Shown: positions 14,241 to 54,557 of the stretch, piece after piece | Layout of the letters: each line of letters begins with the position of its first letter | Position numbering within the stretch: position 1 is the first letter of the stretch | Assembly: GCA_023475165.1 (NCBI GenBank) | Contig: JAMCWA010000088.1 | Span: forward strand, 130,298-194,297 | Reading direction: 5' to 3' | From: Bacillota bacterium | GTDB taxonomy: Bacteria; Bacillota; Sulfobacillia; JAMCWA01 | Length of the DNA: 64,000 nt | The notes under the pieces: generated by a model | Seen by the model: only the letters and a program-made list of their open reading frames with translations | Told to the model about the DNA's origin: nothing | The model's database searches: none | Program-made: the position numbers and the translations under genes

Positions 14241-14669
14241 GTGGCCTTGCAGGCAACCAAGGGCAGCAGCGGAACCTTGGTCGATGTCATCGACCGGCTC
14301 CTGGATAAGGGTCTGGTGATCAATGCCGACATCCTGGTCTCATTGGCGGGGGTGGAGCTCTTGGGGATCAAGATCCGGGCAGCTCTGGCCTCCCTGGATA
14401 CCGCCGCCAGGTACGGTCTTGAGTTTCCCTCCGGCACCAATTATAACACCCAGGCCTGGCGAGCCCTTGATACGGGAAGAGAAAGCTGCCCTCAATGCGG
14501 AAAAACGGCGACAACCGCGGAACTCCTGGAAGAGGGCTGTCCGTGGTGCGGTTGGAAGAGTGCCAAAGCCCGCCTGAAAGAAGCCCAGATGGCCCTTCCT
14601 GAGGTTGAGAAGGTTAACGTAAACCCACCGGAGGAACTGTATAACCCGGACGGACCGGCGGTCGGCTAG
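14241..14669 (+). CDS. gvpJ: GvpA-family paralogue (GvpJ-like) with C-terminal CxxC…CxxC zinc ribbon
   Basis: 'LVDVIDRLLDKGLVINADILVSLAGVELLGIKIRAALASLDTAARYG' is a GvpA fold, followed by 'CPQCGK…CPWCGW'. Confidence 0.85.
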   Translation: MALQATKGSSGTLVDVIDRLLDKGLVINADILVSLAGVELLGIKIRAALASLDTAARYGLEFPSGTNYNTQAWRALDTGRESCPQCGKTATTAELLEEGCPWCGWKSAKARLKEAQMALPEVEKVNVNPPEELYNPDGPAVG

Positions 14670-14800
14670 AAGACCGCTGAAAAACACCCATCTGCGGTGT
14701 GGCGCAATCGCCAGGAGAAGTTCTCCGAAAATGTGGCGTAACTATAGGCGATTGTGTCGCTCCGGCGGCTTGGTGCTCAGCCCATTTCGGGAATTTGGAG
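14666..14800. mobile_element. truncated MITE-like repeat (TIR plus C-module) inserted between gvpJ and gvpK
   Basis: 'ctagaagaccgctgaaaaacacccatctgcggtgtggcgcaatc…gattgtgtcgctccggcggc' matches 30224–30330. Its CTAG contains the gvpJ TAG stop. Confidence 0.7.
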
Positions 14801-14816
14801 CCAGGATGCTCTACCC

Positions 14817-15119
14817 ATGACCATACAAATCAACGAGAACAACCTGAAGGATGGCCTTTTGGCCCTGGTTCTGGCCCTGGTAGAAATCATAGGCGACGTC
14901 CTTCAACATCAGGCCTTCCGCCGGATGGAGGGTGGCCGTTTGACGGAGGATGAGGTCGAGAGACTGGGTCAAGCCCTCCTGGACTTGGAGGAAGCCTTAG
15001 AGAAGATTAAGCGGGAACAGGGGATCTTTGAGGCGGTCCGGGCCGTACGCCATGGTTTGGATGACGTGGTGGACGACTTCCTCGATCGGGTCATGAATCC
15101 CGCGCGTTGGAGGGATTAA
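14817..15119 (+). CDS. gvpK: gas vesicle protein GvpK
   Basis: 'NLKDGLLALVLALVEIIGDVLQHQAFRRMEGGRLTEDEVERLGQAL' matches GvpK. Start is ATG 14817 after a GGAG RBS; the 21 N-terminal codons of the listed ORF lie inside the repeat. Confidence 0.85.
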   Translation: MTIQINENNLKDGLLALVLALVEIIGDVLQHQAFRRMEGGRLTEDEVERLGQALLDLEEALEKIKREQGIFEAVRAVRHGLDDVVDDFLDRVMNPARWRD

Positions 15120-15123
15120 GGCG

Positions 15124-16518
15124 ATGGGTGAATCCCCGGATTTCCGCCTGGCCTATCTATACACCATCCTGGCCCTTTCCGCCGCCGGCAAGGAAGTCAA
15201 CCGGGAAAACCTTTTGGAGCTTCTGCCTTTGCTGGGGCTTCCCGTTGAGGAAGCCTATTTGGAAGCCCTCCTCCGACTGACCCAGATGCTGGCGCCGGCT
15301 TCTAAGAAAACAGGGGAGCCATCCTCTCTCGGCAGTCCAGTCCTGGCCGAGGGACCTGACGCATCCTGCAGCCCAGCCTCCAGCTCAGAGGGATTCCGGT
15401 TGGGGCGTCCTGACAAGACCAGGACCGAGCCCCCTGCCGATAAGCCTCCCCCAGGAAGCTGGCCTCAAGTAAAGCCGGCCGGGCCGGGATGCTGGCCCAG
15501 GACAGAACCCGCCCCGAGAGGGCATCCTGGGGGAACCAGGCCGGAACCCACAACTGAGAACCCCTTTGCGGCGAGGCCAGAAGGTACTCCGGCTGAGCGC
15601 CCCACCGAGACCAGTCCGGAAGCGTCCGTGACCGGGCCTGCCAGCCAAGCCACCCCGGAACTCTCGGCTGACCATCACCTTCCGACCCGGCCGGGGCTCG
15701 AGCACGCCGAGTTTCCCGGTGAGGCTGAGGCTCAGGCCAAATCCGACTCCCAGCTTTCCGGTCGCTATCTCTATGGGATAGTCCTGACCGATGCTTCCAG
15801 GAGCCTGGGCTACATAGGTCTGGACAAGGGCCTGGTTTATGTCATCTGCGACGGTGGGGTGGGCGCCATTGTCCAGGCCTGTTCCCCAAGACCCTATGTT
15901 TCAGAAGACGAAGAGGTGGTCAAGAAGTGGATCAGTACCCACCACGAGATCCTGGAGTCGGTCATCCAGATATTCGGTACCGTCCTCCCAGTCGGCTTCA
16001 ACACCATCTTCCAGAGCGGCGCCGGCGACCCCGATCAGGTCGTGATCCAATGGCTCTCCGAGAACCGTTCTGACCTCCTGGGCAAGATCGAAAGGGTCCG
16101 GGGAAAATGGGAGTATGGAGTACAGGTGTTCCTCAGTCCCGGCGAAATCGGCGAGAGTCTCCTGGCCAACGACCCCGACCTCAGGAGAACAAAAGAAGAA
16201 GCGAGAACAAAGTCCCCCGGTCTGGCCTATATGTATACCCATAAGTTGGAGAGGACCCTCAAGGAGCGCATCGCGCAGATCTCTGAGCTATACTTTCAGG
16301 AGTTCTACCAGACCATCAAGGTCCATTGCGAAGAGGTACGCGTTGAGAAGACCCGGCCTTGGCCGGACGGTCGACAGATGATCCTGAACCTCTCCTGCCT
16401 AGTCCGAGAGAGCCAGGTCCAACAGTTGGGCGAGGACCTCGAATCCCTCCACCGGCGTACCGGGGTTTCTGTCCGATTCACCGGTCCCTGGCCACCCTAC
16501 AGCTTTGTAAGCCAATAG
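15124..16518 (+). CDS. gvpL: GvpL/GvpF-family protein with N-terminal aL12/P-stalk-like domain and long disordered linker
   Basis: C-terminal 'YLYGIVLTDA...VSEDEEVVKKWISTHHEILESV…LPVGFNT' is a GvpL_GvpF domain. Residues 1–60 read 'FRLAYLYTILALSAAGKEVNRENLLELL…VEEAYLEALLRL'. Residues about 60–200 are P/E/T/S/A-rich. Confidence 0.8.
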   Translation: MGESPDFRLAYLYTILALSAAGKEVNRENLLELLPLLGLPVEEAYLEALLRLTQMLAPASKKTGEPSSLGSPVLAEGPDASCSPASSSEGFRLGRPDKTRTEPPADKPPPGSWPQVKPAGPGCWPRTEPAPRGHPGGTRPEPTTENPFAARPEGTPAERPTETSPEASVTGPASQATPELSADHHLPTRPGLEHAEFPGEAEAQAKSDSQLSGRYLYGIVLTDASRSLGYIGLDKGLVYVICDGGVGAIVQACSPRPYVSEDEEVVKKWISTHHEILESVIQIFGTVLPVGFNTIFQSGAGDPDQVVIQWLSENRSDLLGKIERVRGKWEYGVQVFLSPGEIGESLLANDPDLRRTKEEARTKSPGLAYMYTHKLERTLKERIAQISELYFQEFYQTIKVHCEEVRVEKTRPWPDGRQMILNLSCLVRESQVQQLGEDLESLHRRTGVSVRFTGPWPPYSFVSQ

Positions 16519-16600
16519 GGTGCTGGAAAAGCACCCGCGGCAGTGCGACTACATTTCACGGGAGCCTTTTCCAAAAATCCTGGCAGATGAGGGCTGTCCC

Positions 16601-16912
16601 ATGAAGCCTACGGGTACTGCGCAAGCTACCTTAACCGACCTGCTGGACCGAGCCTTCGACAAGGGGCTGGTCTTAACCGCCGATGTCATCATCAGCGTCT
16701 CCGGGATTCCCTTACTCGGTCTCAACATACGGGCCATTTTGGCCGGTATGGAGACCTTGCTGGAGTACGGAATCATGGCCGACTGGGATAAAGCCCAGAG
16801 GAAGGCCTTTAGGAAAACACCGCAGAGGAACCCGCTGATCTTTTCTGAAAAAGGGCCGTGGCCGATTACTGGAGGGTCAAACCTATGCTCCACGAATCTC
16901 TGCCCCGATTAA
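16601..16912 (+). CDS. gvpS: GvpA-family paralogue (GvpS/GvpM-like)
   Basis: 'ATLTDLLDRAFDKGLVLTADVIISVSGIPLLGLNIRAILAGMETLLEYG'. ATG 16601 with a GAGGG RBS. Confidence 0.8.
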   Translation: MKPTGTAQATLTDLLDRAFDKGLVLTADVIISVSGIPLLGLNIRAILAGMETLLEYGIMADWDKAQRKAFRKTPQRNPLIFSEKGPWPITGGSNLCSTNLCPD

Positions 16913-17298
16913 GGGGGTTCCGCCAGTTGAAAAGTGGCCTGGATCTGACTCGCAGGCGAGAACCCAAAACCAGGCACTCCCTTACCCGCTTAGAGGAAAA
17001 CACCCCGGTGAGGGTAAACCGGCTCTCCCTGGCCAGGAGAATGCGAAGGGCAAGAGACTTTTTTGCCCGCCTACAGGCAAGCGTCACTGGCTTTCAAGAG
17101 AGAATGCTGCGGCAACGGGAAAAGCTCAAGGCGTTAAAAGAAGAAAACCGCCGGCTGGCACAATACCGACTGCGCGGCCAGCGGGAGGAGCAGAACGGGT
17201 CAAAAAACGCCCGGGAAAAGCCTGGACCGGCCCTTTCCGGCGCAGCGCTAAATCAACCCCAGGGAGGAGCAACAAGAAGATGGATTTGGATAAAGTGA
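16885..17298 (+). CDS. hypothetical basic, Arg-rich coiled-coil protein in gvp locus
   Basis: It fills the 370 nt gap between gvpS and gvpO. GGAGGG RBS before ATG 16885. 'RMLRQREKLKALKEENRRLAQYRLRGQREEQ' is a predicted coiled coil. No recognisable family. Confidence 0.4.
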   Translation: MLHESLPRLRGFRQLKSGLDLTRRREPKTRHSLTRLEENTPVRVNRLSLARRMRRARDFFARLQASVTGFQERMLRQREKLKALKEENRRLAQYRLRGQREEQNGSKNAREKPGPALSGAALNQPQGGATRRWIWIK

Positions 17299-17549: not shown

Positions 17550-17610
17550 GTGTAGACCGGCCGCGGTCGAGTAAAGGGCCGGGCCCGCCTTTCCCTACAA
17601 GGCGGCCGGG

Positions 17611-19528: not shown

Positions 19529-19536
19529 CTACTCTT

Positions 19537-21689: not shown

Positions 21690-21863
21690 CTCGCGTGACT
21701 GATTCTCCTGGATCCCCGGGCCGCCTTTGGCAGTGCCGCAAAGACTGAAGACATCGCCTGAGCGGGGGACCGGGTCGATATCGTCGAGAGATCTTGGCCG
21801 AGCCCGGCATAGTAGTGGTCTAGACCTCTCTTAGGAATTCGACAAGAAAGGACAGTTTCCTGC

Positions 21864-25570: not shown

Positions 25571-25769
25571 GCAGGGGTCTGGGCCAGAAACCTCATTGGC
25601 TGGCCAGATGGGTCAATCGCATGAAACCGCTGACCCCGGCAAACACTCAACGCTGTCTATACCAGTCAAATCGTAACGAAGCGGACCCCCGATACTGGCC
25701 AGGTCATTGAGGAGCTTCGTTCACATCGACCCAGACCCGCCAAGCTGGCAGGAGCTCGACTTTTTCATA

Positions 25770-25995
25770 CTAGGAGATCCCCATGCCGCCTTTTGGCGGC
25801 GCCAAAGAGTAATGAAACAGCAGCGGCGCCCCGGAAGCAGCTGGTTTGTTTCAGGATAGACCCCCATGCCGCCAGCGGCACCAGCAGATGATGAAAACGG
25901 CCGCGGCATGGTGATTGTGGCAGGCGAACGACTGGCGGAGCGCCGGAGTGAGCCGGGACAACGCTCGGCCAAGAAACCTTATTTTCAGGATAGAC
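25770..25995. repeat. two tandem A-module copies
   Basis: 'ccccatgccgccttttggcggcgccaaagagtaatgaaacagcagcggcg…ctggtttgtttcaggatagacc' is followed by a variant 'ccatgccgccagcggcacc…gcggcatgg'. Confidence 0.7.
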
Positions 25996-28802: not shown

Positions 28803-29187
28803 CTAGATTTCCATGCCGCCTGCGGCGGCACAAAGAATGAAACAGCAGCTAACTCTTTGCTGGGAGATCCCCATGCCGCCTTTTGGCGGCGCCAAAGAGT
28901 ATTGAAACAGCAGCGGCGGCCTGGCAGTAGCTGGTTTGTTTTAGGGTAGAGTGCTGACAAACTGCGTTTTGAGTGGTTAACCCACCCGAGAAACCGTTAG
29001 GGCGAGAGCTCAAATCAGCCCAGATGCTAGGAGCAACAAGGCTCCGAGGCGAGGCGTACTGGGCGGTACGTTGAGCGAGGAGCCGACGGAGCGACAATCG
29101 GCAATAGTAACGCCCCTTGAACAAGGTGGATCTTTCTTGCAGATTGCGCCACACCGCAAGATGGGGGTTTTTCAGAAGTCTCCTAGG
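28803..29187. mobile_element. full composite repeat copy (A-A-B-C plus TIR) inserted between dpaB and dpaA
   Basis: It ends '…ttttcagaagtctcctagg'. The CTAG supplies the dpaA TAG stop. A 17-bp tandem duplication 'gacgtcggcaaactctt' follows, at 29187–29220. Confidence 0.8.
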
Positions 29188-30081
29188 ACGTCGGCAAACT
29201 CTTGACGTCGGCAAACTCTTCAGGAAACTCCCTGGCCAAAAAGGAGGCAACAACTTGGAAAATGGCTCGTCCTGCCGTCCTGGGAGCGACCTTGCCGGGC
29301 AACCCCAGAGCCCAGATCGTCTTTAGGCCTAGCTCCCCGGCTCCTGCAAAATCGGTTCCACCGGGGGCGGAAGCCAGATCAATGATCAAGAGTTCAGGTT
29401 GGGCTTTCCCCAAGACCTCCCGGTTCAGCACCAGCGCCGGGATGGTATTAAAGACTACTGTACCCTCCCGGATGACCGCGCCCAGGTTGCGAAGGGGCAC
29501 CGGGCAGCAGCCCATCTCGGCGGCCCGGGCCAATTGCGCCGGGTTTCTGGCCACGACCACTGTGCGCGCCCCCAATCCGCAAAGCATTCTGGCCAGGGTC
29601 AGCCCCGTCCGCCCCAGTCCTAGAACCAGGGCGGTACTGCCGTGCAGGGTCACTGGCAGGTTCTCCATGGCTACTTGCAGGGCCCCTTCCGCGGAAGGAA
29701 TGGAGTTGAGAATGGCAAAGTCGTCACGCTCCCGGTAAGGTATGACCCTAACCCCAGCGGCCGCCGCAGCTACTTCCAAAGCCGGATTACTGCTGCCAAA
29801 AAAGAGGAGGCCCCCCTTCTGCATGGACGCCAGGGCGGTTTCCTCCAGCTTCATTTCGCAACCGTAAGCGTTCTTAATACCTCCAGAGGAGTCCAAGCCC
29901 AAAACCGGGCCTACGACCAGACGGGCACCGGCCAGGGCTTCCGGCAGACCGCGGGTGTAGCCGATGCCCTCCGGCACAAGATTAACCGGGCAACCAGCAA
30001 TAACCACTTCCTCCACCCAACCGCGAAAATAGCCGGCCGCCTCTACCTCCCTTCTATCACCTACCAAGATGGCCAGTTTCA
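29183..30081 (-). CDS. dpaA: dipicolinate synthase subunit A
   Basis: Rossmann 'GLGRTGLTLARML'. Start at 'MKLAILVGD' (30081). The last 11 codons are encoded by the 17-bp duplication and the element CTAG. Confidence 0.85.
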
Positions 30082-30223: not shown

Positions 30224-30465
30224 CCTAGGAGACCGCTGAAAAACACCCATCTGCGGTGTGGCGCAATCTGCAAGAAAGAACCTTTTCATTAAAGGGCGTT
30301 GCTATTGCAGATTGTCGCGCCTGCGGCTGGTGCTAACGTATTTCTCTATGCGCCTCCGCGCCAAGCCTTGTCGCTCCTAGTATCTGGGCTGAATTGAGGT
30401 CTCGCCTTAACGATTTCTCGGGTGGGTTAACCACTCAGAACGCAGTTTGTCAGCGGTCTCCTAGG
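30224..30465. mobile_element. MITE-like element (C+B modules) with perfect 15-bp terminal inverted repeats
   Basis: 'cctaggagaccgctg…cagcggtctcctagg'. No ORF. The C and B modules match seven or more other loci. Confidence 0.85.
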
Positions 30466-30628: not shown

Positions 30629-30654
30629 CCGGTCAGACCGATGTTTCCAAGTTT

Positions 30655-30705
30655 CTCGAGCGAGTTAACCATTCAAGACGCAGTTCATCTGCTGTCTCCT
30701 AGTGG
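30655..30705. repeat. B-module fragment
   Basis: 'gagttaaccattcaagacgcagttcatctgctgtctcctag'. Confidence 0.5.
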
Positions 30706-31196
30706 GTCTCAACATCAGTGGCACCGTTTTGCCGGAGGATGGAGGCTGCCTCACTCACCTTCTTCTCATCGGATTTAATGACGGTCAGGATGCTGCCCCG
30801 CTTAACTTCTTCCTCATAAAAGCGACCCCTGGCCTCGGGGATCCCCAGGTCCAGCAGTCCACCAGCGATGCCCCCGGTTACAGCTCCGGTCAAACCGGCG
30901 GCAATGGGTCCAGCCGCCAGGATGGGACCGACCCCGGGTATAGCCAGGGCTCCCGCCCCGGCCAGCAGGCCGGCCAAACCGCCAATGGTTCCACCGGTTA
31001 GAGTACCGTTAGAAAGGTTGTCATTGGCGAAACCACCGCCCTGCCCGCCTCTTGTACCAGTCTGACCGCCCCGAGCGGTAGCTTCCTTGGCCACTATGGA
31101 GATCTCGTTGTTGGTAAAGCCTTTTCTGCGCAAATCGTCAACAGCCGTCTCAGCTTGTTGTCGTGACTTAAAGACACCGATCACCGTCTTGGACAT
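30699..31196 (-). CDS. YflT-like general stress protein with glycine-zipper segment
   Basis: 'VIGVFKSRQQAETAVDDLRRKGF…ISIV' N-terminus. 'GGLAGLLAGAGALAIPGVGPILAAG' is a glycine zipper. C-terminus 'ILTV…ASILRQNGATDV'. Confidence 0.55.
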   Translation of the reverse strand: MSKTVIGVFKSRQQAETAVDDLRRKGFTNNEISIVAKEATARGGQTGTRGGQGGGFANDNLSNGTLTGGTIGGLAGLLAGAGALAIPGVGPILAAGPIAAGLTGAVTGGIAGGLLDLGIPEARGRFYEEEVKRGSILTVIKSDEKKVSEAASILRQNGATDVETH

Positions 31197-31619: not shown

Positions 31620-31710
31620 CTGCTCCCCCCTGGGAGACCGCTGGAGAACTCCCATCTGCGTGCCAGGCGGGCTCCCGCCCGTCTGAAACCGCAGTTCGTC
31701 AGCAGTCACG
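31620..31710. repeat. repeat fragment (TIR plus B-module end)
   Basis: 'gggagaccgctggagaactcccatctgcg…aaaccgcagttcgtcagcagtc'. Confidence 0.5.
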
Positions 31711-32715: not shown

Positions 32716-32735
32716 TCCGAAAAACCCCCTTTGTC

Positions 32736-33040
32736 TTGGAGACCGCTGGAAAACACCCATCTGCGTTGCCGCAATCCGCCGGAGGACTCTTCCTAAAAAT
32801 GGGACGCGCCTGTGGCGGATTGCCGGGCAATCGGCCCGCAACAACTTGCCATCAAGTCAGGCGTCGGCTAAGGCCGATTGTGGCGCAATTCGCCAGGGGA
32901 GCTTTCCTGGTCAGATGGTGCATGACTACGACGAATTGTGTCGTTCCGGCGGCTCCTCACTCAACGTACCGCCCAGTACGCCTCGCTTCGGAGCCTTGTC
33001 GCTCCTAGCATCTGGGCATTCTTGAGCGGTCTTGGCCCAA
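32736..33040. mobile_element. composite repeat copy with internal duplication
   Basis: 'cttggagaccgctggaaaacacccatctgcg…ggcgattgtggcgcaat…cttgtcgctcctagcatctgggc…gagcggtcttggcc'. Confidence 0.7.
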
Positions 33041-33089
33041 CAGTGTGGCTAAAGCCGTCAGAAGGACTTTCGTTATCAAGCCTTTTATA

Positions 33090-33243
33090 GACTATGGCGT
33101 CTTTCCTCGGGCAGGTAACCACTCAAACCGCAGTTCGTCAGCATTCTACACGGAAACAAACCAGCTACTTCCAGGACGCCGCTGCTGTTTCACTACCCTT
33201 TGGCGCCGCCAAAAGGCGGCATGGGGGTCTCCTAGGAGACCTT
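33090..33243. mobile_element. B(partial)+A modules in reverse orientation ending in an abutted TIR–TIR palindrome
   Basis: '…ggcggcatgggggtctcctaggagacc'. The CTAG supplies the TAG stop of the M16 peptidase. Confidence 0.7.
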
Positions 33244-39324: not shown

Positions 39325-39375
39325 CTCGGCGTGGCGACGGGCAGGTTAACCCGTCAGAACGCAGTTTGTCAGCTA
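39325..39375. repeat. B-module fragment
   Basis: 'gttaacccgtcagaacgcagtttgtcagc'. Confidence 0.5.
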
Positions 39376-40337
39376 TCGGCTAAAGCCCCCCGCACCGCGG
39401 TGATAACCTTCTCTCTGGCCTCATTTAAGGGAAGAGATAGGGTGCACCCAGCGGCACGGGGATGCCCACCCCCGTCAAAATGGCTGGCCACACGGCTCAC
39501 GTCCACTTGGTGGCGGGAACGTAAGGAGACGCGCACCTTCCCGTCACCCGTCTCCCGAAAAAGGAGGCCGACCTCAACCCCGCGGATGGCCCGGGCATAG
39601 TTAATGATACCCTCGGTTTCCTCATCGCTGGCTCCCGTCTCCTCCAAAGCGGCTCGGCTGATCACCAACCAGGCCACCTTTCCATCCGGGGTCAACTCCA
39701 GAGTCTCCAAGGCCCGCCCAAGAAGGCGCGCGCTGGAAAGAGACCTGGTCTCAAAGGCGTTTTCGGCCACCTGAGCCGGCTTGGCCCCCAGTCTCACCAG
39801 TTCCGCCGCCACGCGGAAGGTGCTCTCCCTGGTACTCTCATACCGAAAGGAGCCGGTATCCGTAACAATGGCCGTATAAAGGCAGGTAGCGATCGCCGGG
39901 CTGATGTCTACCTCCATGCTCCTCAATAGCTCATAGATCTGCTCACCTACCGCTGCCGCCTGTACGTCGACATAGTTATACTGCCCAAAGCCGGCGTTAG
40001 TGCCGTGGTGATCGATGTTGACTACTAAAGCTACCCTCGCCAAAAGCTTTGCCGCCTCCCCGACTCGCGTCGGGTCACCGCAATCTACCAGTACTCCCAC
40101 CCGGAAATCCCCCTCAACCTGGCGCCAATCCGCGATTTCTCCGGACCCAGGCAGGAACTGGTAGATCTCCGGAAGGGGGTCAGACCGCACCACCACTGCT
40201 TTTTTGCCCAGGAGCCGGAGGGAGAGGCCCAGGGCCAGGGCGGAACCGAGGGTATCCCCGTCGGGCTGGACATGGGTGAAAATGAGAAAACCATTTTCCC
40301 GTTGAAAGAGTTCGGCCAGGTCTTTAGGAGACTCCAT
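39369..40337 (-). CDS. nrnA: DHH-family bifunctional oligoribonuclease / pAp phosphatase NrnA
   Basis: 'FTHVQPDGDTLGS', 'DHHGTN', and the DHHA1 C-terminus. Start at 'MESPKD'. Confidence 0.8.
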   Translation of the reverse strand: MESPKDLAELFQRENGFLIFTHVQPDGDTLGSALALGLSLRLLGKKAVVVRSDPLPEIYQFLPGSGEIADWRQVEGDFRVGVLVDCGDPTRVGEAAKLLARVALVVNIDHHGTNAGFGQYNYVDVQAAAVGEQIYELLRSMEVDISPAIATCLYTAIVTDTGSFRYESTRESTFRVAAELVRLGAKPAQVAENAFETRSLSSARLLGRALETLELTPDGKVAWLVISRAALEETGASDEETEGIINYARAIRGVEVGLLFRETGDGKVRVSLRSRHQVDVSRVASHFDGGGHPRAAGCTLSLPLNEAREKVITAVRGALADS

Positions 40338-41175: not shown

Positions 41176-44100
41176 TCAGGCCTCTTCCTTAATCTGTTCC
41201 ATGATGAAGGCCTCGATGATGTCGCCTTCCTTAACATCCTGGAACCGTTCCAGGCCGATGCCGCATTCCTTGCCAGCAGTGACTTCGCGAACATCATCCT
41301 TAAAATGCTTTAAGGATTCGATCTTACCTTCGTGGACAACCACACCATCACGGATAAGCCTGACTTGTGCGTTCCGGAGGATCTTACCTTCTTGAACGTA
41401 AGAACCGGCCACCGTCCCTACCTTGGGGACCTTGAAAGTGGCCCTGACTTCGGCTCGGCCCAGGGTAGTCTCTTTGAACTTGGGAGACAGCATCCCTTTT
41501 AGGGCTGCCTTGACATCGTCGATGGCATCGTAAATCACGCGGTAGGAGCGAACGTCGACCTTTTCCGTTTCCGCCGCTTCTCTGGCCTTGGGCTCTGGAC
41601 GCACATCAAAACCGATGATGATGGCTCCAGAAGCAGAAGCCAGCATGACATCCGTCTCCGTAATGGCCCCGACTCCGGCATGAATGACCCGGACCTTGGT
41701 CTCCTCATTCCCTAGCTTTTCCAGGCTCTGGCGGACGGCTTCCACCGTCCCCTGAACGTCACCCTTGATGATGAGGTTCAGTTCCTTCAGTTCGCCTTCC
41801 TTCATCCGGCGATAGAGGTCATCCAAGGTCAGGCGGCTCGCCACCCGCAGTTCCTCTTCTCGTCGCTTGGTCTGCCGCCGGGCCGAAATCTCCTTGGCTT
41901 TTCGCTCATCTTCAACCACGATGAAGATGTCGCTGGCCGACGGAACGTCGGTAAAGCCAAGGATTTCCACCGGGGTGGCCGGACCGGCCTTCTTGATGCG
42001 ACGCCCCCGGTCATCAGTCATGGCGCGGACCTTTCCATAGGTGCGACCGCTGACGAAGACATCGCCAACGGACAGCGTTCCATTCTGAATGAGGACAGTC
42101 CCGACCGGGCCGCGACCCTTATCCAACTGAGCCTCAATGACAATACCCCTGGCTGCCCGCTTGGGATTGGCCTTCAATTCCTCCATGTCGGCAACCAACA
42201 AAAGCATCTCCAGAAGGTGATCAATGCCGGTCTTGTCCCGGGCCGATACCGGGACCATGATGTTTGTGCCACCCCACTCCTCGCCAACCAGTCCGTACTC
42301 CGTTAGCTGTTGCTTAACCCGTTCCGGCTGCGCATTGGGCTTATCAATCTTGTTAATAGCCACCACAATGGGAACGCCGGCGGCTCGGGCATGGTTAATG
42401 GCCTCCACGGTCTGTGGCATTACCCCGTCGTCCGCCGCCACTACCAGTACGGCAATGTCGGTCGCCTTAGCCCCTCTGGCTCGCATGGCCGTGAAAGCCT
42501 CATGGCCCGGCGTATCCAGAAAGACTACTTTACGATCTCCCGCCTCCACCGTGGAAGCCCCGATGTGCTGGGTAATACCCCCCGCCTCCTGGGCCGTAAC
42601 ATTGGTTTTCCGGATGGCATCCAGCAGGGAGGTCTTCCCATGGTCGACATGACCCATTACAGTGACTACCGGGGCTCGGGGAACCAAATCCGCCGGATCG
42701 TCCACGATGACCTCTTCCTCCGGCTCTTCAATGACCGCGGCCTTCTCCTCGATCTCGACGCCGTAGGCTTCCGCCACCACGGCGGCCGTTTCCAGGTCGA
42801 TCTCTTGATTTATGGTCGCCATCACACCCATGGAGATCAACTTCTTCAGCAAATCGGTCCCCTTGACGGCCATTTTCTCGGCCAGATCCTTTACCGATAC
42901 AGGTCCTTCCAGGGCTATGACCCGCGGTGTAGCAGGTCTCTCGTCCACCCGGGCCCCCAACCTCGGTTTGGCTTTCCCTCTACCCCCCGGTCTGACCTTG
43001 GCCAGAAGACGTTCCTCATCTTGCGTCAGCCATTGCTTAGATCTCTCTCGTTCGGGTACTCGCTTCGCGCCCTTTTTGCCCTGAGCCACCTTTTCGGTAC
43101 CCTTTTCACCAGCCGGGCCCGCTTTCTCTCCAGGGCGGGGCGGGGTCACGGGCCCGCGTACCGGTCCGGACACCGGTCGATCCACCCCCGGTATCCGGCG
43201 AGTATCGGTTCGCCGAATGGGAAGGCCGACGTTTCCCCCCGGTTTTCTGGGGATGGGTCCTTCCAGAGGTCTCCTGGGCTGTTCTTCCGGGCGAAGGACC
43301 GTCAGCCGATCACGGCCCGTCCTGACCTCACCAGCTCCGTTCCGGTCCGGCCCAACGGCCCGCGCGGTCCCCTCCCGCGACAAACCGCGCTTTTCTTCGC
43401 GATCACTCCAGGCCGGGCCGAATGTGGATGAAGGGGAGACCGTCGCCCTGGGCAGACCATTGGTCTTGCCAACTCGCGCTGGACCGTTGAGGCGACCAAT
43501 GGAACTTGGACCCTCCGCCCGGTCCTCCTCTGTCCCCTCCCAGGTTTTCGCCACGGTGGACGGCTCCACTTCAGAAGAGAAAGTGACGTCAGGAGTCTCT
43601 TCCTTTGCCCCCGCCCGCACTCCGGCACCGTCACCTCGGTTTATTCCCGCTTCCTGGGGGGCGTCCTCCCTCTCGTCACCCTTTTCAGCCGTAATTCCTT
43701 TCTCTTCCACCTCAGCCAACCGGGCTCGGGCGGCAGACCAGCCCTTGTCCGGAGCCACCGGAAAGGAGTGCTCTTCTCCCCTCAAGTCAGCCGGTGGCTT
43801 CTCCGTTTCCCAATCTCTGGCCTCCTGGCCCGTTTCCCAACGGGGCGTCTCAAAACGCGAAAGGTCCGGCTCACTACCACTTATGACCCTGACCGTTCCG
43901 GTGCTTCCCCGGCGAGAGGGCGGGATCTGCCGGCTCTGATCCATCTCCGGTGTCCAGAGACCGGTCTTCACCACCGGTCTGGGATCCCTGGTCTCTTTTC
44001 TCGTACCAGGACCATGACCGGTCCTCTCTTCCGGCCCTGTGGTCATCCCTTTCTTGGCTAGCCCTCCAGCCGCTGCCCCTTGGCCGCCCTTCTGATCCGA

Positions 44101-44544
44101 ACGGCTCTTTTGAACGACGCCGCTTTTCCCGGCGACAGCCCGCGCGTCCATTGAGCCTTGCCGCGTGGCTAGCCGGTCGCGATTGGTGGTGGTCTGCCGC
44201 AAGGTCTCCGGGACGGGACGATTGGCCGGACCGCCCACCCTAACGGCCAGGCGGTCATTGGCCATACGGGTCCCTGGCCGCTCCGGCGATACCTTCAGAG
44301 CAGCACCCGCGCTACCTTCAGAACGTATCTCTATCTCTTTGGTCAGCTCCCCTTCTCCCCTTTCCCCCACTTCCTGAACCTTAATCTTCCCCGAAAAAAT
44401 ATCCATAAGGGTCTGGACGGTCAATGGCTCCAGGGTGCTCATGTGATTCTTGACGTCAACCTTCAGTTGACCCAGAACCTTCATGACTACCTTGGAGTCG
44501 ACGCCAGCCTTTTTGGCCAGTTCATAAACCCTCAGTTTCTCCAA
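41176..44544 (-). CDS. infB: translation initiation factor IF-2 (long form)
   Basis: 1122 aa. G-domain '[16 protein letters not shown]', 'DTPGHEAF', 'NKIDK'. About 500 aa of low-complexity N-terminal region. Confidence 0.95.
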
Positions 44545-44559
44545 ACAAAGCCACCTCCG

Positions 44560-44886
44560 TCAGGACGAACCCATCGGTTTCGCCCCTTCCGCCAATATTC
44601 TCTGTATCTCTCTAACCATATTGTCGTCGGTGATCCCCGCTAAAGCTATCGTAGCCTGCCCGAAAATCAAGCCCAGCTCAACCTTGTTCGAAAGATAGAC
44701 ATAAGGAATAGAATTGCGATCAGCCAAAACCCCTGCCTCCCAGCGCGAATGCACGCCGGCGTCATTGGCGATTATCAGGAGTTTCACCGTCTTGTCTTCC
44801 AGAGCCCGTTTAACCCGCTCCGTCCCCAGAACCAACCGCCCGGCCTTTTTGGCCAGACCAAGGAGATTCCTCACTTTATCCTCCAT
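44560..44886 (-). CDS. L7Ae-family RNA-binding protein YlxQ
   Basis: 'LLGLAKKAGRLVLGTERVKRALEDKTVKLLIIANDAG'. Confidence 0.8.
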   Translation of the reverse strand: MEDKVRNLLGLAKKAGRLVLGTERVKRALEDKTVKLLIIANDAGVHSRWEAGVLADRNSIPYVYLSNKVELGLIFGQATIALAGITDDNMVREIQRILAEGAKPMGSS

Positions 44887-44891
44887 AGCCT

Positions 44892-45197
44892 TTACCCTCC
44901 ACGGGATCGCCCGGGGACCGGCAGGTTCCTGACGGCCTCCCGGAGGGTTTCCGCCAGCTCCGGCGGGATGGGGGCCTTAAGAGCTCTTTCCAGGTGCTTG
45001 CCCTTCCAGGCCTTCTCCAGACAATCCAGCGAGGGACAAACATAGGCCCCACGGCCCGATTTCTTTCCGGTGGGATCCAGCACCACTTCACCCTCCGGCG
45101 TGCGGACTATTCTAATTAACTCTTTCTTGGGCCGGGCCTCCTGGCAGCCGACACAGATCCGCACAGGTATCTTACGGACTTTTTGACCTCTGGGCAT
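44892..45197 (-). CDS. YlxR (DUF448) RNA-binding protein
   Basis: 'RICVGCQEARPKKELIRIVRTPEGEVVLDPTGKKSGRGAYVC'. Confidence 0.75.
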   Translation of the reverse strand: MPRGQKVRKIPVRICVGCQEARPKKELIRIVRTPEGEVVLDPTGKKSGRGAYVCPSLDCLEKAWKGKHLERALKAPIPPELAETLREAVRNLPVPGRSRGG

Positions 45198-45245
45198 CCA
45201 TCCCACCCCCCGGAACTCAGGTCTCCCAAAACTGTGGTCTGGCAC

Positions 45246-45292
45246 CGCTAGGAGACCGCTTAAAAAGGGTTTTCCAGCGGTCTCCTAGGTTT
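45246..45292. repeat. solo-TIR palindrome of the MITE family between nusA and ylxR
   Basis: 'gctaggagaccgcttaaaaagggttttccagcggtctcctagg': a 10–11 bp stem with a 14 nt loop. The CTAG supplies the nusA TAG stop. Confidence 0.8.
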
Positions 45293-46316
45293 GACCCTCA
45301 CTCTTGATATCCACCTTCCAGCCCGTCAGCCTGGCCGCCAAGCGGGCATTCTGTCCTTCCTTACCAATAGCCAAAGACAGTTGGTAGTCTGGGACCACAA
45401 CCCTGGCCATCCTGATCTCCTCATCAACAGCGACTGAAATTACCTTGGCCGGGCTTAGGGCGTTGGCCACAAAACTGGCCGGGTCGGAATCCCACCTTAT
45501 GATATCCAACTTTTCCCCTCGAAGTTCATCAACGATGGCTCCAACCCGAGCCCCTCGCGGCCCGACACACGCCCCCACGGGATCGATGTCCTCATCTCGG
45601 GAGTAGACGGCCACCTTGGAACGAAAACCCGCCTCACGGGAGATCCCCTTGATCTCCACCAGGCCGTCATGAATCTCCGGTACCTCCTGTTCGAAAAGTC
45701 TCTTGATTAAACCGGGATGAGTCCGGGAAACGTAGATCTGGGGCCCGCGGTTGGTCTTGCGAACCTCAATGATGTAGCTTTTCAAGGTTTCGCCCTGCCG
45801 ATAAACCTCCGTCACCACCTGTTCCGCCTGGGTCAAAACGGCCTCAACTCGGCCCAGATCCAGAATAACGTTCTTCTGCTCAATGCGATGGACTTTGCCG
45901 CTGACAATGTCACCCTCGCGGTTGGAGAATTCCTCGAAAATAATACCCCTCTCGGCCTCTCTAATGCGTTGTACCACCACCTGCTTGGCCGTCTGAGCGG
46001 CTATGCGGCCAAAATCTTTGGGGGTGACCTCCTTCTCCACCACATCCCCTACCTCATAGGAACGGTTTAGTCTGCGGGCCTCCTCCAACGAGATCTCCAA
46101 ACGGGGATCAACGGCCTGCTCCACCACCGTTCTTTGGGTGAGAACCTTTATCTCACCGGTTTGCCGGTCGATGTGAACCCGCACATTCTGAAGGGAACCA
46201 AAGTTGCGCCGGTAGGCGGACACCAAAGCCGCCTCAATGGCTTCAAGAAGGACCTCCTGCGAAATTCCCTTCTCTTCCTCCAGTTCGCGGATGGCCTCCA
46301 ACAATTCCGTGTTCAT
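45285..46316 (-). CDS. nusA: transcription termination/antitermination factor NusA
   Basis: 343 aa with S1 and tandem KH domains. '[19 protein letters not shown]'. Confidence 0.95.
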
Positions 46317-46442
46317 GCTCTAATCCTCCCGAAACTGCTTTAACTGCAAAATCCGAGACCGCTGAGAACGGCCTCCTGCGATCTCGCCTGGTGGCGCGGG
46401 CTACGGTAACAGGCAGCCCCCAGGCTGTTCTTCCCGGTACGC

Positions 46443-46973
46443 CTAAAGCTCAGGTCGTAGTCGAGCCGAAGCCACCTTCTCTTTGGGAATGGCTACTTCC
46501 TTTCCTTCTTCCAGCATCAGGATTACCCGCTCCTCTACCAGGCCCTGCAAGTCCCCGACGAAAACCTTCCTTCCCTCCACAGGAGCAAAGGTCTTAACCT
46601 CAACCCGGCGCCCCCGAAAACGTTCAAAATCATTGTCTTTTCTCAGCGGGCGCTCCAGGCCAGGTGAAGCCACCTCCAGGAAGTAGTTGCCAGGGATCAG
46701 GTCGAGTTCATCCAACTTCCCGCTCAACTCACGATTCACAACCTCGCATTCCTCGAGACTAATCCCGCCAGGGCGATCGATGAAAACCCGCAGGAACCAG
46801 TTCCCAGCCTCTTGCACCATCTCCACCGCCACCAGTTCAAAATGCCTGAACTGGGTTATCGCCTCAGCCAGGCCGTGGACCCTTTCTTCGATTTCTCTTC
46901 GGTTAAAGCGACCTTTCAAGCCTTCACCTCCCGAAAGGAATCCTTGGAATGGCAGCAAGTCTTCACTCTTCAT
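46443..46973 (-). CDS. rimP: ribosome maturation factor RimP
   Basis: 'FELVAVEMVQEAGNWFLRVFIDRPGGISLEECEVVNRELS…LEVASPGLERPL'. The N-terminal start is uncertain. Confidence 0.8.
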   Translation of the reverse strand: MKSEDLLPFQGFLSGGEGLKGRFNRREIEERVHGLAEAITQFRHFELVAVEMVQEAGNWFLRVFIDRPGGISLEECEVVNRELSGKLDELDLIPGNYFLEVASPGLERPLRKDNDFERFRGRRVEVKTFAPVEGRKVFVGDLQGLVEERVILMLEEGKEVAIPKEKVASARLRPEL

Positions 46974-47134
46974 GTTAAAAAGAGTGGGTAGTCACCCACT
47001 CCTCCGACGACAGCGACAAAACTTCGGTTATCGTCTCTGGCCCTTGAAGACCAAAAGTTCGACACCTTTTTGAGTATATCATATGATTTGAAGCAAAACA
47101 AGGATATCTTTTTGATTCCAGTTGGCTGCTGGGG

Positions 47135-47405
47135 GGCCGCCGAAAAACCTCCCCCTCTGTGGCGCAACCATTTCCTGGTCGGGCAGGCCACTGAAACCCA
47201 GCCGGTCAGTGGTCGCCCAGGAGACTGCTGACGAACTACGTCTTGAGTGGTTAACCCGCCCGAGATACCGTTCGGGCGAGACCGCTCAAAAATGCCCAGA
47301 TGCTAGGAGCGACAAGGCTCCGAAGCGAGGCGTACTAAGTGGTACGTTGAGCGAGGAGCCGCCGGAGCGACACCGCAGATGGGTGTTTTTCAGCGGTCTC
47401 CTAGC
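47135..47405. mobile_element. MITE-like repeat copy (C and B modules, TIRs)
   Basis: 'ggccgccgaaaaacc…gttaacccgcccgagataccgtt…cagcggtctcctagc'. The TIR encodes the last 5 codons and the TGA stop of murC. Confidence 0.8.
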
Positions 47406-48775
47406 TCTGATAACCGGTCGGCAATTTCCACAGCCACCCGGTCAATATCCCCGGCTCCCAGGGTAATGACCAGATCTCCAGGCCGGGCCAGGGAAAGCAC
47501 CAGGGCGGGAATCTCTTCCTTCACCGCTCGGTAATAAGTGGCAGGGTGTCGGCGGCCTACGGCCTTGGCCAGGTCGGCCCCGGAAATCTCACCAGTGTCC
47601 TTTTCCCGAGCGGCGTAAATGGAGGTCAAGATGACGATATCGGCCTCAGCCAGGGAATCGGCAAAACCGGCCAGGAGGTCTTTGGTCCGGCTGTAAAGAT
47701 GAGGTTGAAAAATGGCGATGAGCCTACCCTCGGCCAACTTCCTGGCCGCCGCCAGCGTAGCCCTGATCTCCGTGGGATGGTGAGCGTAATCATCGACCAC
47801 GGTAATCCCGGCCTGGCTGGCTTTCTTCTCAAAACGGCGGTGGGTCCCGGCAAAGCTCTCTAAACCTTCCCTTGTCTCCTCCGGCCCCAGACCCAACCCA
47901 ACGACTAGAGCTGCCGCCGCCAGGGCGTTGGCAACATTGTGAGCACCAGGAACCTTCAGGGAGACCCGGCCCAGATTCCGTCCCTGTCCCACCAGTTCAA
48001 AGGAGGGATAGCCTTTGTCAAAAGCTACATTCTGGGCACGCCAGTCGGCCTCCCCTTTCAGGGCAAAGGTGACCACCCGGCTCCTGGCTCTTGCTGCCAC
48101 CAGCCGCCAATTGGGATCTTCCCCATTTAATACCAAGAACCCTTCTCGATTGACCCGGCTGGCAAAGCGGCCGAAGGCCTCCAGGACCCTCTCAAAGGTT
48201 CCATAGTAGTCCAGGTGATCGGGCTCCATATTAAGTACGGCGGCCGCATAAGGGTTAAACCGGAGAAAGGATTCACTATATTCGCAGGCCTCGGTTATGA
48301 AGTACTGGGATTGGCCCACCCGAACGTTTCCCCCGATTTCATCCAGTTCTCCCCCCACCAAAACCATCGGATCCTTACCGGCATGAATCAGGATAGTGGA
48401 AACCATGGAGGTGGTGGTGGTTTTCCCGTGGGTACCGGCGATAGCAATGCCATATTGGGCGCGTTCCATGAGTCGTCCTAAAACCTCGGCCCGGCTGTAT
48501 ACCGGTAAGCCCTTTTCCCTGGCTCGAAGCAGTTCCGGGTTATCTGGTTTGACGGCCGCCGTGTAGATGACGGCCTCCGCCCCATCGACATTCTCCGAAC
48601 GATGACCGAGAAATATCGTGGCCCCGTGCTGGGCCAGCCGGTCCAACAGATTCGAAGTCTTGAGGTCCGAACCAGTTATGCGGTGCCCTTCCCGCAGCAG
48701 AACCTCGGCGATCCCGCTCATGCTGATCCCACCGATGCCGATCATATGGATCCGGTGGGCCGAAAGGATATCCAT
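47390..48775 (-). CDS. murC: UDP-N-acetylmuramate–L-alanine ligase
   Basis: 'HMIGIGGISMSGIAEVL' and Mur ligase 'GTHGKTTTTSM'. Start at 'MDILSAHRIH'. Confidence 0.9.
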   Translation of the reverse strand: MDILSAHRIHMIGIGGISMSGIAEVLLREGHRITGSDLKTSNLLDRLAQHGATIFLGHRSENVDGAEAVIYTAAVKPDNPELLRAREKGLPVYSRAEVLGRLMERAQYGIAIAGTHGKTTTTSMVSTILIHAGKDPMVLVGGELDEIGGNVRVGQSQYFITEACEYSESFLRFNPYAAAVLNMEPDHLDYYGTFERVLEAFGRFASRVNREGFLVLNGEDPNWRLVAARARSRVVTFALKGEADWRAQNVAFDKGYPSFELVGQGRNLGRVSLKVPGAHNVANALAAAALVVGLGLGPEETREGLESFAGTHRRFEKKASQAGITVVDDYAHHPTEIRATLAAARKLAEGRLIAIFQPHLYSRTKDLLAGFADSLAEADIVILTSIYAAREKDTGEISGADLAKAVGRRHPATYYRAVKEEIPALVLSLARPGDLVITLGAGDIDRVAVEIADRLSELGDR

Positions 48776-52970: not shown

Positions 52971-53005
52971 TGGAAAACCCCCGGGCGCAACCTAAAGGAC
53001 TACTC

Positions 53006-53488
53006 CTATCCGCGTATGATATTCTCGTCGGCAACGGCAGGAGTGGCCTTGTTCGTCATTTGAGTTTTAGACCCTGCATTGTTCTTGATCAGTCCTTGGA
53101 TTTGATTTAACACTTGAGGAGCCAGATCGATGAGCCGATCCACCACGGCTCCCCCGTCAACCGGGAGCAGCCGTACCGTTCCATTACCAACCACCAGGAA
53201 ACCCACCGGTTGCACGGTCACCCCGGCGCCACTACCTCCCCCAAAGGGGAGGGTCGTCTCACGCCCTCCGGGACTTGGAGCACCGCCCCTGGGCTCGTTG
53301 GTCGCTGTCGTTCCGGTTTCGTACTCGCCGCCTCCGGCGGCAAAACCAAATGTCACCCGGGAGACGGGAAGAATGACACTACCATCGGGCGTTTCCACCG
53401 CCTCGCCCACTACGGTATTAACGTCCACCATTTCCTTGATGCTCTCCATGGCCGTCTTCATTAAGCCTTGGATGGGATGCTCGTTCAC
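53006..53488 (-). CDS. ytfJ: sporulation protein YtfJ/GerW
   Basis: 'GEAVETPDGSVILPVSRVTFGFAAGGGEY' is the YtfJ_HI0045 family motif. Confidence 0.8.
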   Translation of the reverse strand: MNEHPIQGLMKTAMESIKEMVDVNTVVGEAVETPDGSVILPVSRVTFGFAAGGGEYETGTTATNEPRGGAPSPGGRETTLPFGGGSGAGVTVQPVGFLVVGNGTVRLLPVDGGAVVDRLIDLAPQVLNQIQGLIKNNAGSKTQMTNKATPAVADENIIRG

Positions 53489-54155
53489 CAGTCAGAACCC
53501 CCTTTAGGAGCAATCGCCAAAAAAATACGCTTCCGGCGGTCATAATATAGCCCAGCCGGGTAACAAATATACAGGCGAAATCTGTGTCCAGGCGCGGTTG
53601 CAGGAAATCGGCGGAAAGGGTGATCCGGGGTGGCCTCCCCTTTATCCGAGCATGCTGGGTCATGAGGGCATAGGCCGAACCCTTCAAGGCCCACAGGAAA
53701 CCATAAAGTAATCCAGTGGCGGCGGCGTCTTCAGTGCCCACCGCCGACTGCCAGGTTAAGTTTCGGCACCAGGTTCTCCTGGCCAGGTAGCGGATGAGTC
53801 GGGCGTATTCGTGGCCAATCTTCTTCCCCAGCCGGAGGCCCCGGATTAGCTTACCCCAGTTTACCTTTTCCACGGTTACCGTCTTCAGCTCCTGGTCTTT
53901 ACCGACTCCGTCCTCCCGGAGGACCTCCTCCACCCGCCAGGTAGCACCCCAACCCTCGGCCCGCCAGATAGCCGGGACCTGGTACCGGTAGTCCACCAGC
54001 CCCTTGAGGGTCTCAATTTCCACTGAGAATTGCTCATCTTGCTCCTTCCTTTTAATCCTGATGGCGACGTTGAAAGGGACCAAGAAGCTGAGGAGCAAAA
54101 CGCCTACTAGTAGACCGCAAAACAGGCCTAGCGACAGAGAGATGGTCGTCATCAA
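53418..54155 (-). CDS. DUF2953 (YtfI-like) membrane protein
   Basis: N-terminal TM segment. Adjacent to ytfJ as in Bacillus. Confidence 0.55.
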   Translation of the reverse strand: MMTTISLSLGLFCGLLVGVLLLSFLVPFNVAIRIKRKEQDEQFSVEIETLKGLVDYRYQVPAIWRAEGWGATWRVEEVLREDGVGKDQELKTVTVEKVNWGKLIRGLRLGKKIGHEYARLIRYLARRTWCRNLTWQSAVGTEDAAATGLLYGFLWALKGSAYALMTQHARIKGRPPRITLSADFLQPRLDTDFACIFVTRLGYIMTAGSVFFWRLLLKGVLTGERASHPRLNEDGHGEHQGNGGR

Positions 54156-54311
54156 CGGGTCCCCCCACCGTAAGCTCCACCCCAGTTTGTCATTCCCTTA
54201 TCCTTCCCGCCTAACCCGGTGGCCATACCCGGTGACAACAAAATAACCCACAAAAAAGGGACTTCGCAGGACGAAGCCCCTCGGGGTTCCCTAACCCTTC
54301 TGTTGTCCTTT

Positions 54312-54557
54312 CCTAGGAGACCGCCGAAAAACCCCCCTCTGCGGTGTGGCGCAATCTGCAAGAAAGAACCTTTTTATGAAAGGGGCCTTACCATTGCAGA
54401 TTGTCGCTCCGGCGGCTCCTCGCTCAACGTACCACCTGGTACGCCTCGCCTCGGAGCCTTGTCGCTCCTAGCATCTGGGCTGATTTGAGGTCTCGGCCTG
54501 GCGGTATCTCGGGTCGGTTTTACCATTCAAAACGCAATTCGACGGCCGTCTCCTAGG
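54312..54557. mobile_element. MITE-like repeat copy (C+B modules, TIRs)
   Basis: 'cctaggagaccgccgaaaaacc…gcggtgtggcgcaatctgcaagaaagaacc…gccgtctcctagg'. The CTAG supplies the scpB TAG stop. Confidence 0.8.

Follow-up and report, generated by a model that had tools for sequence, protein, structure and literature searches.

Genes and dispersed repeats in the window

The DNA analyzed here (64,000 nt, 58% GC; positions 130,298–194,297 of contig JAMCWA010000088.1, assembly GCA_023475165.1), referred to below as the window, comes from a Bacillota bacterium. It carries the genes rimP-nusA-ylxR-ylxQ-infB-rbfA-nrnA-truB-ribF-rpsO-pnp-M16-dut (M16 being a peptidase gene), a YflT-like gene, and dpaA-dpaB-dapG-dapA in the conserved Bacillota order, and in addition murC, trpS-scpA-scpB, and a gas-vesicle operon. 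Comparison of the window with itself reveals a family of dispersed repeats, about 16 blocks at 14–16 loci, that lie among these genes, and 9 of the approximately 16 blocks coincide with the stop codon or the last codons of a gene. These repeats, and the reason for their position at gene ends, are the subject of this report.

The repeats measure 41, ~90, ~180–240, and ~330 nt, and there are truncated relics as well. Alignment of the longer copies gives a ~240-nt consensus with CTAG at both boundaries, whose two terminal inverted repeats (TIRs) are imperfect and read GGAGACCGCTGAAAAACACCCATCTGCGG and GGAGACCGCTGACAAACTGCGTTCTGAGTGG; the TIR versions found in the window are GGAGACCGCTGA(A/C)AAAC, GGAGACTGCTGACGAAC, and GAAGACCGCTGAAAAAC. 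Three types of end (types 1, 2, and 3) occur in the family. Besides the ~240-nt form we find a 91-nt form with the end GGAGATCCCCATGCC, an 89-nt form, a 41-nt form that is hardly more than two TIRs, composite and tandem arrays, and relics made up of a solo end. Most copies are 9–18% diverged and several are truncated. Six-frame translation of the (concatenated) element gave no homologues among 5.8 billion proteins.

Four contigs of the metagenome-assembled genome (MAG) GCA_023379645.1, with blocks A, B, C, D, F, and J among their contents, match the window at 99.9–100% identity, and the elements are also present, at 99–100% identity, in several assemblies of this species from Logan and ENA. 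Among the contigs examined, blocks B, C, D, F, H, and J are present in every related assembly and only element I is polymorphic. The 400-nt gap that block B creates between dpaA and dpaB is found likewise in GCA_023379645.1, and the SRR28285718 strain has element H too. Short-read contigs often stop inside the TIR, a few bases past the gvpJ stop codon.

Element ends coincide with stop codons

Several genes end in a TAG that is part of the CTAG flanking a repeat. The gvpJ-like open reading frame (ORF; 14241–14669, plus strand) has its TAG at 14667–14669, within the CTAG at 14666–14669, and in the minus-strand genes dpaA, M16, nusA, and scpB the stop is formed by the CTA of a CTAG, at 29183, 33232, 45285, and 54553, respectively. 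A preliminary description of the window had listed these five TAG stops and the TGA of murC at 47390, and all six coordinates are correct. It had given the flanking motif as C-TAG-G, from which gvpJ departs in having CTAG-A (the TIR copy there is mutated to GAAGACC). It had also placed the last five codons and the TGA of murC inside the TIR; the TGA is indeed there, but the number of codons is four. In murC (minus strand, to 48853) these four codons and the TGA at 47390–47392 lie within CTAG plus TIR (GAG CTA GGA GAC CGC TGA) and give the tail LGDR*.

There are further cases. The YflT-like gene has its TAG stop (30699) in the CTAG belonging to a solo TIR remnant. As in murC, the TGA within the TIR is the stop of trpS (55869; tail IGDR*) and of nrnA (39369; tail LADS*). 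The gene identities are supported by NCBIfam and Pfam matches, and all nine genes are family-validated. The ends that these genes meet at their stops are of type 1 in five cases, type 2 in three, and type 3 in one. Since all end types are found at stops, there is no dependence on orientation, and it is the element boundary that is associated with the stop codon.

Read from outside, the TIR has a TAG at the junction in frame 1 and a TGA four codons in, in frame 2 (CTA GGA GAC CGC TGA), while its third frame reaches a stop only after 11–20 codons. The observed genes use the TAG in six cases and the TGA in three, and none uses the third frame. The TGA ends of murC, trpS, and nrnA are a few residues at most from where the corresponding family models end, which argues for insertions into the last codons that gave the proteins a replacement tail of four amino acids. 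The tails LGDR and IGDR, and the LGDH of an alternative murC allele (below), are transposon-encoded.

The repeats have the ends of an IS1182 subgroup

Public genome contigs and metagenome contigs were scanned with the TIR pattern GGAGACCGCTGNNNAACNNCNNTCTG. The genome contigs gave one chance match (L001), and the metagenome contigs gave one real match, an insertion sequence (IS) of ~1.6 kb in a soil actinobacterial contig (L002/L003). This IS (L002 2840–4460, Ga0126313_10011744), which is degraded, has the left end CTAG|GAGACCGCTGAAAAAC and a frameshifted ORF with a DUF772 domain and a match to the NCBIfam IS1182 transposase model NF033551 (E = 9e-29, 100.7 bits); IS5-family models gave 52 and 37 bits only. 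It lies between convergent genes for a MarR regulator and a glyoxalase-like protein, each of which ends in the TAG of a flanking CTAG, as is expected if one CTAG shared by two overlapping stops was duplicated as a 4-bp unit.

The soil transposase was then used as a tblastn probe against PLSDB, where it found 287 plasmids, and the IS ends on plasmids were located by a fuzzy TIR search. Five ISs annotated as IS1182 family by the Prokaryotic Genome Annotation Pipeline (PGAP), in plasmids of Rhodococcus, Gordonia, Dietzia, Mycobacterium, and Streptomyces, have the ends CTAG|GAGACTGCTGAA...TTCAGCAGTCTC|CTAG, with CTAG on both sides in all five. The ends that the plasmid and soil ISs and the window elements have in common are CTAG|GAGACYGCTGAA…TTCAGCRGTCTC|CTAG. 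Individual IS1182 TIRs read GGAGACTGCTGAACAA (L006 and L031), GGAGACTGCTGAATAA (L032), GAAGACTGCTGAAAATC (L033), and GGAGACCGCTGAAAAAC (L002), and GAAGACTGCTGAAAATC is identical to the gvpJ copy at 18 of 20 positions. The sampled plasmid loci L034–L036 showed no match to the TIR subgroup of the window. Beside two of the plasmid IS1182 copies, small coding sequences called by PGAP end at the TIR TGA. [quoted passage not shown]

CTAG is duplicated on insertion

Because the same CTAG ends are found on annotated IS1182-family ISs, the CTAG at the boundaries of the repeats is, on the evidence of the sequences, the 4-bp target-site duplication of IS1182-type DDE transposition. Perfect CTAG…CTAG flanks are present at elements C (30225/30461), H (45248/45285), and J (54313/54553) and at composite block B (28803/29183), and outside these CTAGs there is no further direct repeat. 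We also looked in the flanks for a wider target consensus around CTAG, and no clear conservation was seen. Since CTAG is a target duplication, the TAG stops were not supplied by the repeats; they pre-existed in the target, as the duplication shows, and were copied with it. The idea that repeat termini supply the stop codons of host genes is therefore right for the TGA of murC, trpS, and nrnA only, and wrong for the TAGs.

Two comparisons bear on the state of these sites before insertion. When block B is removed in silico together with one CTAG, what remains is dpaA with its TAG, 20 nt that include GGAGGTG, and the GTG start of dpaB. The nearest available relative (L005, DpaA 63% identical), for which the DNA-level comparison with an element-free relative covers the dpaA–dpaB spacer, has a spacer of 17 nt with a similar ribosome-binding site, a TAA stop, and no element.

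The best evidence of a duplication comes from element I (47217–47404), for which a filled and an empty allele are available and which is a 180-nt body (47221–47400) plus the duplicated tetranucleotide. Logan contig SRR28285718_52440 (L009) is 99.0–99.4% identical to positions 42975–48465 of the window and lacks exactly 184 nt, which are element I, that is, the 180-nt body and 4 nt. The empty site of L009 reads …TTATCAGAG-CTGG-GCGACCACTGA… (GAG-CTGG-GCG), and the filled site of the window reads …TTATCAGAG-CTAG-[180-nt element]-CTGG-GCGACCACTGA…. The length arithmetic (body plus 4) and the position are as expected for a target duplication, and the absence of element I from L009 makes it a presence/absence polymorphism. 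Its neighbor is an older small element, K1 (47129–47220; CTGG|GGGGCCGCCGAAAAAC...CAGTGGTCGCC|CAG), and in L009 murC ends in the TIR of K1 (CTG GGC GAC CAC TGA, tail LGDH*) where the murC of the window has LGDR*. Element I has landed on a CTAG-like junction made by the older K1, and landing on older junctions in this way accounts for the tandem and composite arrays.

CTAG sites in the window

The census and statistics that follow refer to the one 64-kb window. CTAG is depleted, with 64 sites against 163 ± 11 expected. Eight sites overlap a stop codon, ~38 are inside genes, ~9 are free intergenic sites, and 18 are element flanks or lie inside elements. All intragenic CTAGs are in the two non-stop frames; none is in the stop frame inside a coding sequence. 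Elements occupy 6 of the 8 stop-overlapping CTAGs and 3 of the 50 others (Fisher p = 5e-5), the two stop-overlapping sites without an element being those at 21864 and 56981. Set against the other non-coding CTAGs only, the occupancy is 6/8 vs. 2/11 (p = 0.02, n = 19). Six exact abutments would have a joint probability of ~8e-11 if insertions were spread uniformly over the residual spacers.

The preliminary description had offered two explanations, integration by preference at CTAGs that overlap stop codons, or tolerance of insertions only where CTAG immediately re-creates a stop. Integration at CTAG is borne out by the 4-bp target duplication, but there is only a weak indication (p = 0.02) that stop-overlapping CTAGs are preferred to the other non-coding ones, and purifying selection accounts equally well for the excess. 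The second explanation is too strong as worded, as there are copies at intergenic CTAGs (30225/30461 and 25770) and copies at an in-frame CTA-G a few codons before the native end of a gene.

Transcription and RNA structure

Two elements sit between a stop codon and a native intrinsic terminator (30630–30600 after the YflT-like gene and 54282–54256 after scpB, both on the minus strand), and others are inside conserved operons, between nusA and ylxR, nrnA and truB, M16 and dut, and dpaA and dpaB. From these locations, the elements are very probably transcribed as part of 3′ untranslated or intercistronic RNA. Their predicted folding is strong on either strand, −108 kcal/mol with a z-score of about −4.7 against shuffled sequences, and places the stop codon at the base of the TIR stem. 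We also considered that the elements themselves might be intrinsic terminators, and rejected this: they have no U tracts, and a terminator scan flags the native terminators downstream. At the Rfam gathering threshold no match falls on the repeats. The only match in the window lies elsewhere and is a lysine riboswitch (59304–59489, minus strand; RF00168, 115.9 bits), upstream of an ornithine/diaminopimelate decarboxylase (lysA-like) gene. A regulatory role of the elements is possible but unsupported.

Proposed origin of the pattern and alternatives

We propose that an IS1182-family DDE transposase, acting in trans, mobilizes these MITEs. In this model the transposase recognizes the TIR GGAGACYGCTGAA... 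and makes cuts staggered by 4 bp at the palindrome CTAG, and the resulting CTAG on either side of the insertion is what the sequences show. Where the target is the C of a sense codon followed by a TAG stop, the TAG at the junction stays intact and the protein is unchanged; this route applies to gvpJ, dpaA, the YflT-like gene, M16, nusA, and scpB. Where the target is an in-frame CTA-Gnn near the native end, the reading frame enters the TIR and ends four codons on at the TGA of GGAGACCGCTGA (CTA GGA GAC CGC TGA, LGDR*), which is the route for murC, trpS, and nrnA. That copies are concentrated at gene ends would reflect the scarcity of CTAG, the absence of stop-frame CTAGs from genes, and selection against other insertions in genes and promoters. 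Each insertion would also make two new CTAGs, which would give rise to tandem and composite arrays and to the copy that stands between murC and an older copy, and truncated relics may have been kept where they now encode last codons or a stop. At C-TAG stops a transposon that duplicates CTAG does almost no harm and so accumulates, and the clustering at stop codons would then be mostly a predictable by-product of CTAG targeting and selection.

We are fairly confident of this explanation, by which the repeats are MITEs derived from the IS1182 family that duplicate CTAG and do almost no harm at C-TAG stops. Some observations weigh against it. The 64-kb window holds no transposase gene, and we infer the mobilizing IS in the source organism. 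The two tetranucleotides of the filled/empty pair at murC differ at one base (CTAG vs. CTGG), which calls for one more mutation, a slightly relaxed target, or an excision that started from a filled ancestor. The sample is also a single window. As most copies are diverged and several are truncated, most insertions are old, and selection and insertion preference are inseparable. The termini could in principle be read in terms of the IS630/Tc1-mariner superfamily instead, with only the central TA duplicated, the element running GGAGACC...GGTCTCC, and the C and G outside it being part of the target. IS630 targets CTAG and duplicates TA, and with a CTAG target the IS630 and IS1182 models give identical junctions (CTA|GGAGACC...GGTCTCC|TAG). 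Nevertheless, the same termini are present on elements that encode IS1182-family and not IS630 transposases, and the empty site CTGG of L009 contains no TA; on these grounds an IS630/Tc1-mariner MITE was rejected. The 4-bp direct repeats reported for the IS1182 family (PMC3281130; PMC11578231) count in the same direction, and we regard this alternative as very unlikely. Misassembly, or the chance ending of long ORFs of a 58% GC genome at palindromic repeats, is hardly credible: high-GC windows do hold many spurious ORFs, but here the C-termini of nine family-validated genes coincide with the model ends or miss them by a few residues, the junctions are reproduced in independent assemblies, and the joint positional probability is the ~8e-11 given above.

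The position at stop codons might also be adaptive, acting on mRNA stability, on termination and transfer-messenger RNA (tmRNA) tagging, or on translational coupling, in the manner of repetitive extragenic palindromic (REP) sequences and bacterial interspersed mosaic elements (BIMEs), or the transposase might be guided to stop regions. The folding far beyond shuffled controls on both strands, the burial of the UAG at the TIR stem base, the 6/8 vs. 2/11 occupancy, the position upstream of native terminators, and the fixation of all but one copy in the near-identical assemblies examined would all fit such a function. Strong folding, however, follows by itself from the presence of TIRs. Elements in either orientation and ends of each of the three types are found at stops, unlike what a directional RNA function would give, and the elements match no Rfam family and lack U tracts of the kind seen in terminators. 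L009 does without the element at murC, which is therefore dispensable, and the statistical excess, picked out post hoc, is small. Moreover, REP sequences and their REP-associated tyrosine transposases (RAYTs) make no target duplication and the window elements do. We therefore think an adaptive or guided position improbable. A REP/REPIN (RAYT) origin was itself rejected, given the target duplication and termini that match DDE-type ISs, and no RAYT was seen among the selected ORFs of the window that were scanned. It is also rather doubtful, in our estimate, that the TIR is a portable gene end, with stops in two of its three frames, that colonizes the 3′ ends of essential genes, its relics being co-opted and the excess at stop CTAGs reflecting benefit or targeting. 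In that event murC, trpS, and nrnA would have in the relics their actual C-terminal codons and their stops, and the stop-enclosing hairpins could tune termination, 3′ stability, and translational coupling (nusA-infB, dpaAB, and scpAB).

An IS1182-derived MITE family at gene ends has some practical consequences. For annotation, essential genes (murC, trpS, and nrnA) have their last codons or their stop in a repeat, and for assembly, short-read contigs break a few bases after stops at element ends. Should the stop hairpins be regulatory, nusA-infB, dpaAB, and scpAB would be good test cases, although the findings do not require regulation.

Individual elements

Element A (14666–14780), at the gvpJ-like gene, is a truncated MITE with the left end CTAG|AAGACCGCTGAAAAACACCC, and this CTAG holds the plus-strand TAG at 14667–14669. 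In contig L023 (ENA ERZ27236928 k141_337636), positions 1–110 of which correspond to window positions 14589–14697, a second element end (…GTTCGTCAGCAGTCTC|CTAG) precedes the CTAGAAGACC of element A, and the contig has an extra internal hairpin module within that element. The difference at the gvpJ stop is either strain-level variation or an assembly chimera across TIRs.

Composite block B (28803–29186), with CTAG at 28803 and 29183, occupies the dpaA–dpaB spacer and is made up of two type 3 copies, one partial and one full (28860–28947), and a ~240-nt element in reverse orientation (28948–29182). Its right CTAG holds the dpaA TAG (29183–29185, minus strand). Directly outside this CTAG, the codons at the end of dpaA contain a tandem duplication of 17 nt, which is perfect (GACGTCGGCAAACTCTT twice, 29187–29220) and present in GCA_023379645.1 as well. 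The duplication shifts the frame so that the junction TAG becomes the stop; without it dpaA would reach the TGA of the TIR (before the insertion, a TGA inside the dpaB ribosome-binding site). Aberrant transposition or a repair footprint is a possible origin of this duplication. The other large composite, block F (32735–33235; CTTG|GAGACCGCTGG...GGGGGTCTC|CTAG), occupies the spacer between M16 and dut, and its right CTAG holds the M16 TAG (33232–33234, minus strand). Blocks B and F have in common the derived internal junction GTCAGCA(C/T)TCTAC, which indicates that the composite itself was mobilized.

Elements C (30225–30464) and J (54313–54556) are complete ~240-nt MITEs with perfect CTAG...CTAG flanks. 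C is intergenic, upstream of dpaA, and away from any stop codon, and the right CTAG of J holds the scpB TAG (54553–54555, minus strand). We note that the last codons of scpB (54557–54572, GAAAAGGTCCCC-TAG, EKVP*) and M16 (33236–33252, GAGAAGGTCTCC-TAG, EKVS*) are alike, and that these two ends (GAAAAGGTCCCCTAG and GAGAAGGTCTCCTAG, respectively) form with the TIR a longer palindrome, GGTCTC-CTAG-GAGACC. This likeness may be due to chance, to a weak palindromic target preference, or to relics of still older ends. The 41-nt mini element H (45248–45288; CTAG|GAGACCGCTTAAAAAGGGTTTTCCAGCGGTCTC|CTAG) lies between nusA and ylxR, holds the nusA TAG (45285–45287, minus strand) in its right CTAG, and has a predicted hairpin of −31.8 kcal/mol.

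Solo ends make up several of the remaining blocks. A right-end remnant at 30652–30702 (...GTTCATCTGCTGTCTC|CTAG) has in its CTAG the TAG of the YflT-like gene (30699–31196, minus strand). Between nrnA and truB, a right-end remnant at 39338–39382 contains in a degenerate TIR the TGA of nrnA (39369–39371, minus strand) and the five codons before it, the end reading TTA GCC GAT AGC TGA. The TIR remnant between trpS and scpA (55856–55883) forms the trpS end ATA GGA GAC CGC TGA (stop at 55869–55871, minus strand). Another right-end remnant, at 7045–7101 (…GTTCGTCAGCAGTCTG|CTAA), is away from any stop, and a short degenerate MITE at 31630–31710 (CTGG|GAGACCGCTGGAGAAC...GTTCGTCAGCAGTC) is intergenic.

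A 91-nt type 3 MITE (25770–25860; CTAG|GAGATCCCCATGCCGCC...CAGG|ATAG) is at an intergenic CTAG with no stop codon. It follows one of three copies of a ~78-nt segment (25697–25774, 63417–63494, and 1998–2080, the latter two in reverse complement) that matches the 5′ end of the gene at 62304–63500 (MAGQVIEE..RPRP.KLA); the copy at 25.7 kb resembles a gene-start fragment, after which come the CTAG and the MITE. Degenerate repeats at 13037–13170, 62166–62270, and 2082–2200 have ends (..TGAAAAAGCCGCGGTGTGGCGAC..) that are like a type 1 TIR without its outer ~10 nt. None of them abuts a stop codon, and they probably represent older relatives within the family. Finally, 40 nt downstream of the element-free stop at 21864 is a palindrome, GGTCTAGACC (21815–21830), which resembles a TIR-CTAG-TIR junction from which most is missing; it could be an excision footprint or due to chance.

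Comparison with known systems

Short structured repeats just 3′ of genes, co-transcribed in operons and with mosaic or tandem arrangement, are known from REP/BIME/REPIN sequences and from MITEs of the Correia (CREE) and Chunjie type, and such repeats can change where transcripts end on the 3′ side. REPs are moved by RAYT (Y1) transposases without target duplication and Correia elements duplicate TA, whereas the window elements have a CTAG duplication and DDE-type TIRs, so that the likeness is positional and not mechanistic.

Closer parallels are found among DDE elements that duplicate four base pairs. IS5 duplicates YTAR, mostly CTAG (PMC5493358), and MITEPsy1 of Pseudomonas syringae also duplicates CTAG (PMC3189936); the MITEPsy1 TIR GGAAGGTCTGAAAAAGCC resembles GGAGACCGCTGAAAAAC, and the IS5 and IS1182 transposases have the DUF772 N-terminal domain in common. 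The best TIR and transposase matches nevertheless go to IS1182-family models and not to IS5. The TIR GGAGACYGCTGAA... of IS1182 ISs is essentially identical to that of the window elements, and 4-bp direct repeats have been described for ISPse1 of the IS1182 family (PMC3281130), for the IS1182-derived MITEPye1, with ISPye18 (PMC11578231), and for the ISMac2-related MITEs of Methanosarcina acetivorans (PMC3852290). Like the window repeats, the MITEs of this family are small, non-coding, multi-copy, mostly intergenic, and hairpin-folding, and have a 4-bp direct repeat (PMC11578231; PMC3852290; PMC3281130). The window family differs from them in its three end types, its 41-nt TIR-only form, and its composite and tandem arrays, and in its host, an uncultured sporulating Bacillota lineage (MAG GCA_023379645.1). 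The coincidence of more than half of its blocks with a stop or last codons is not reported in the literature cited here for IS1182-type MITEs. It is thus a previously undescribed, modular family of IS1182-derived MITEs in an uncultured, sporulating, gas-vesicle-bearing member of the Bacillota.

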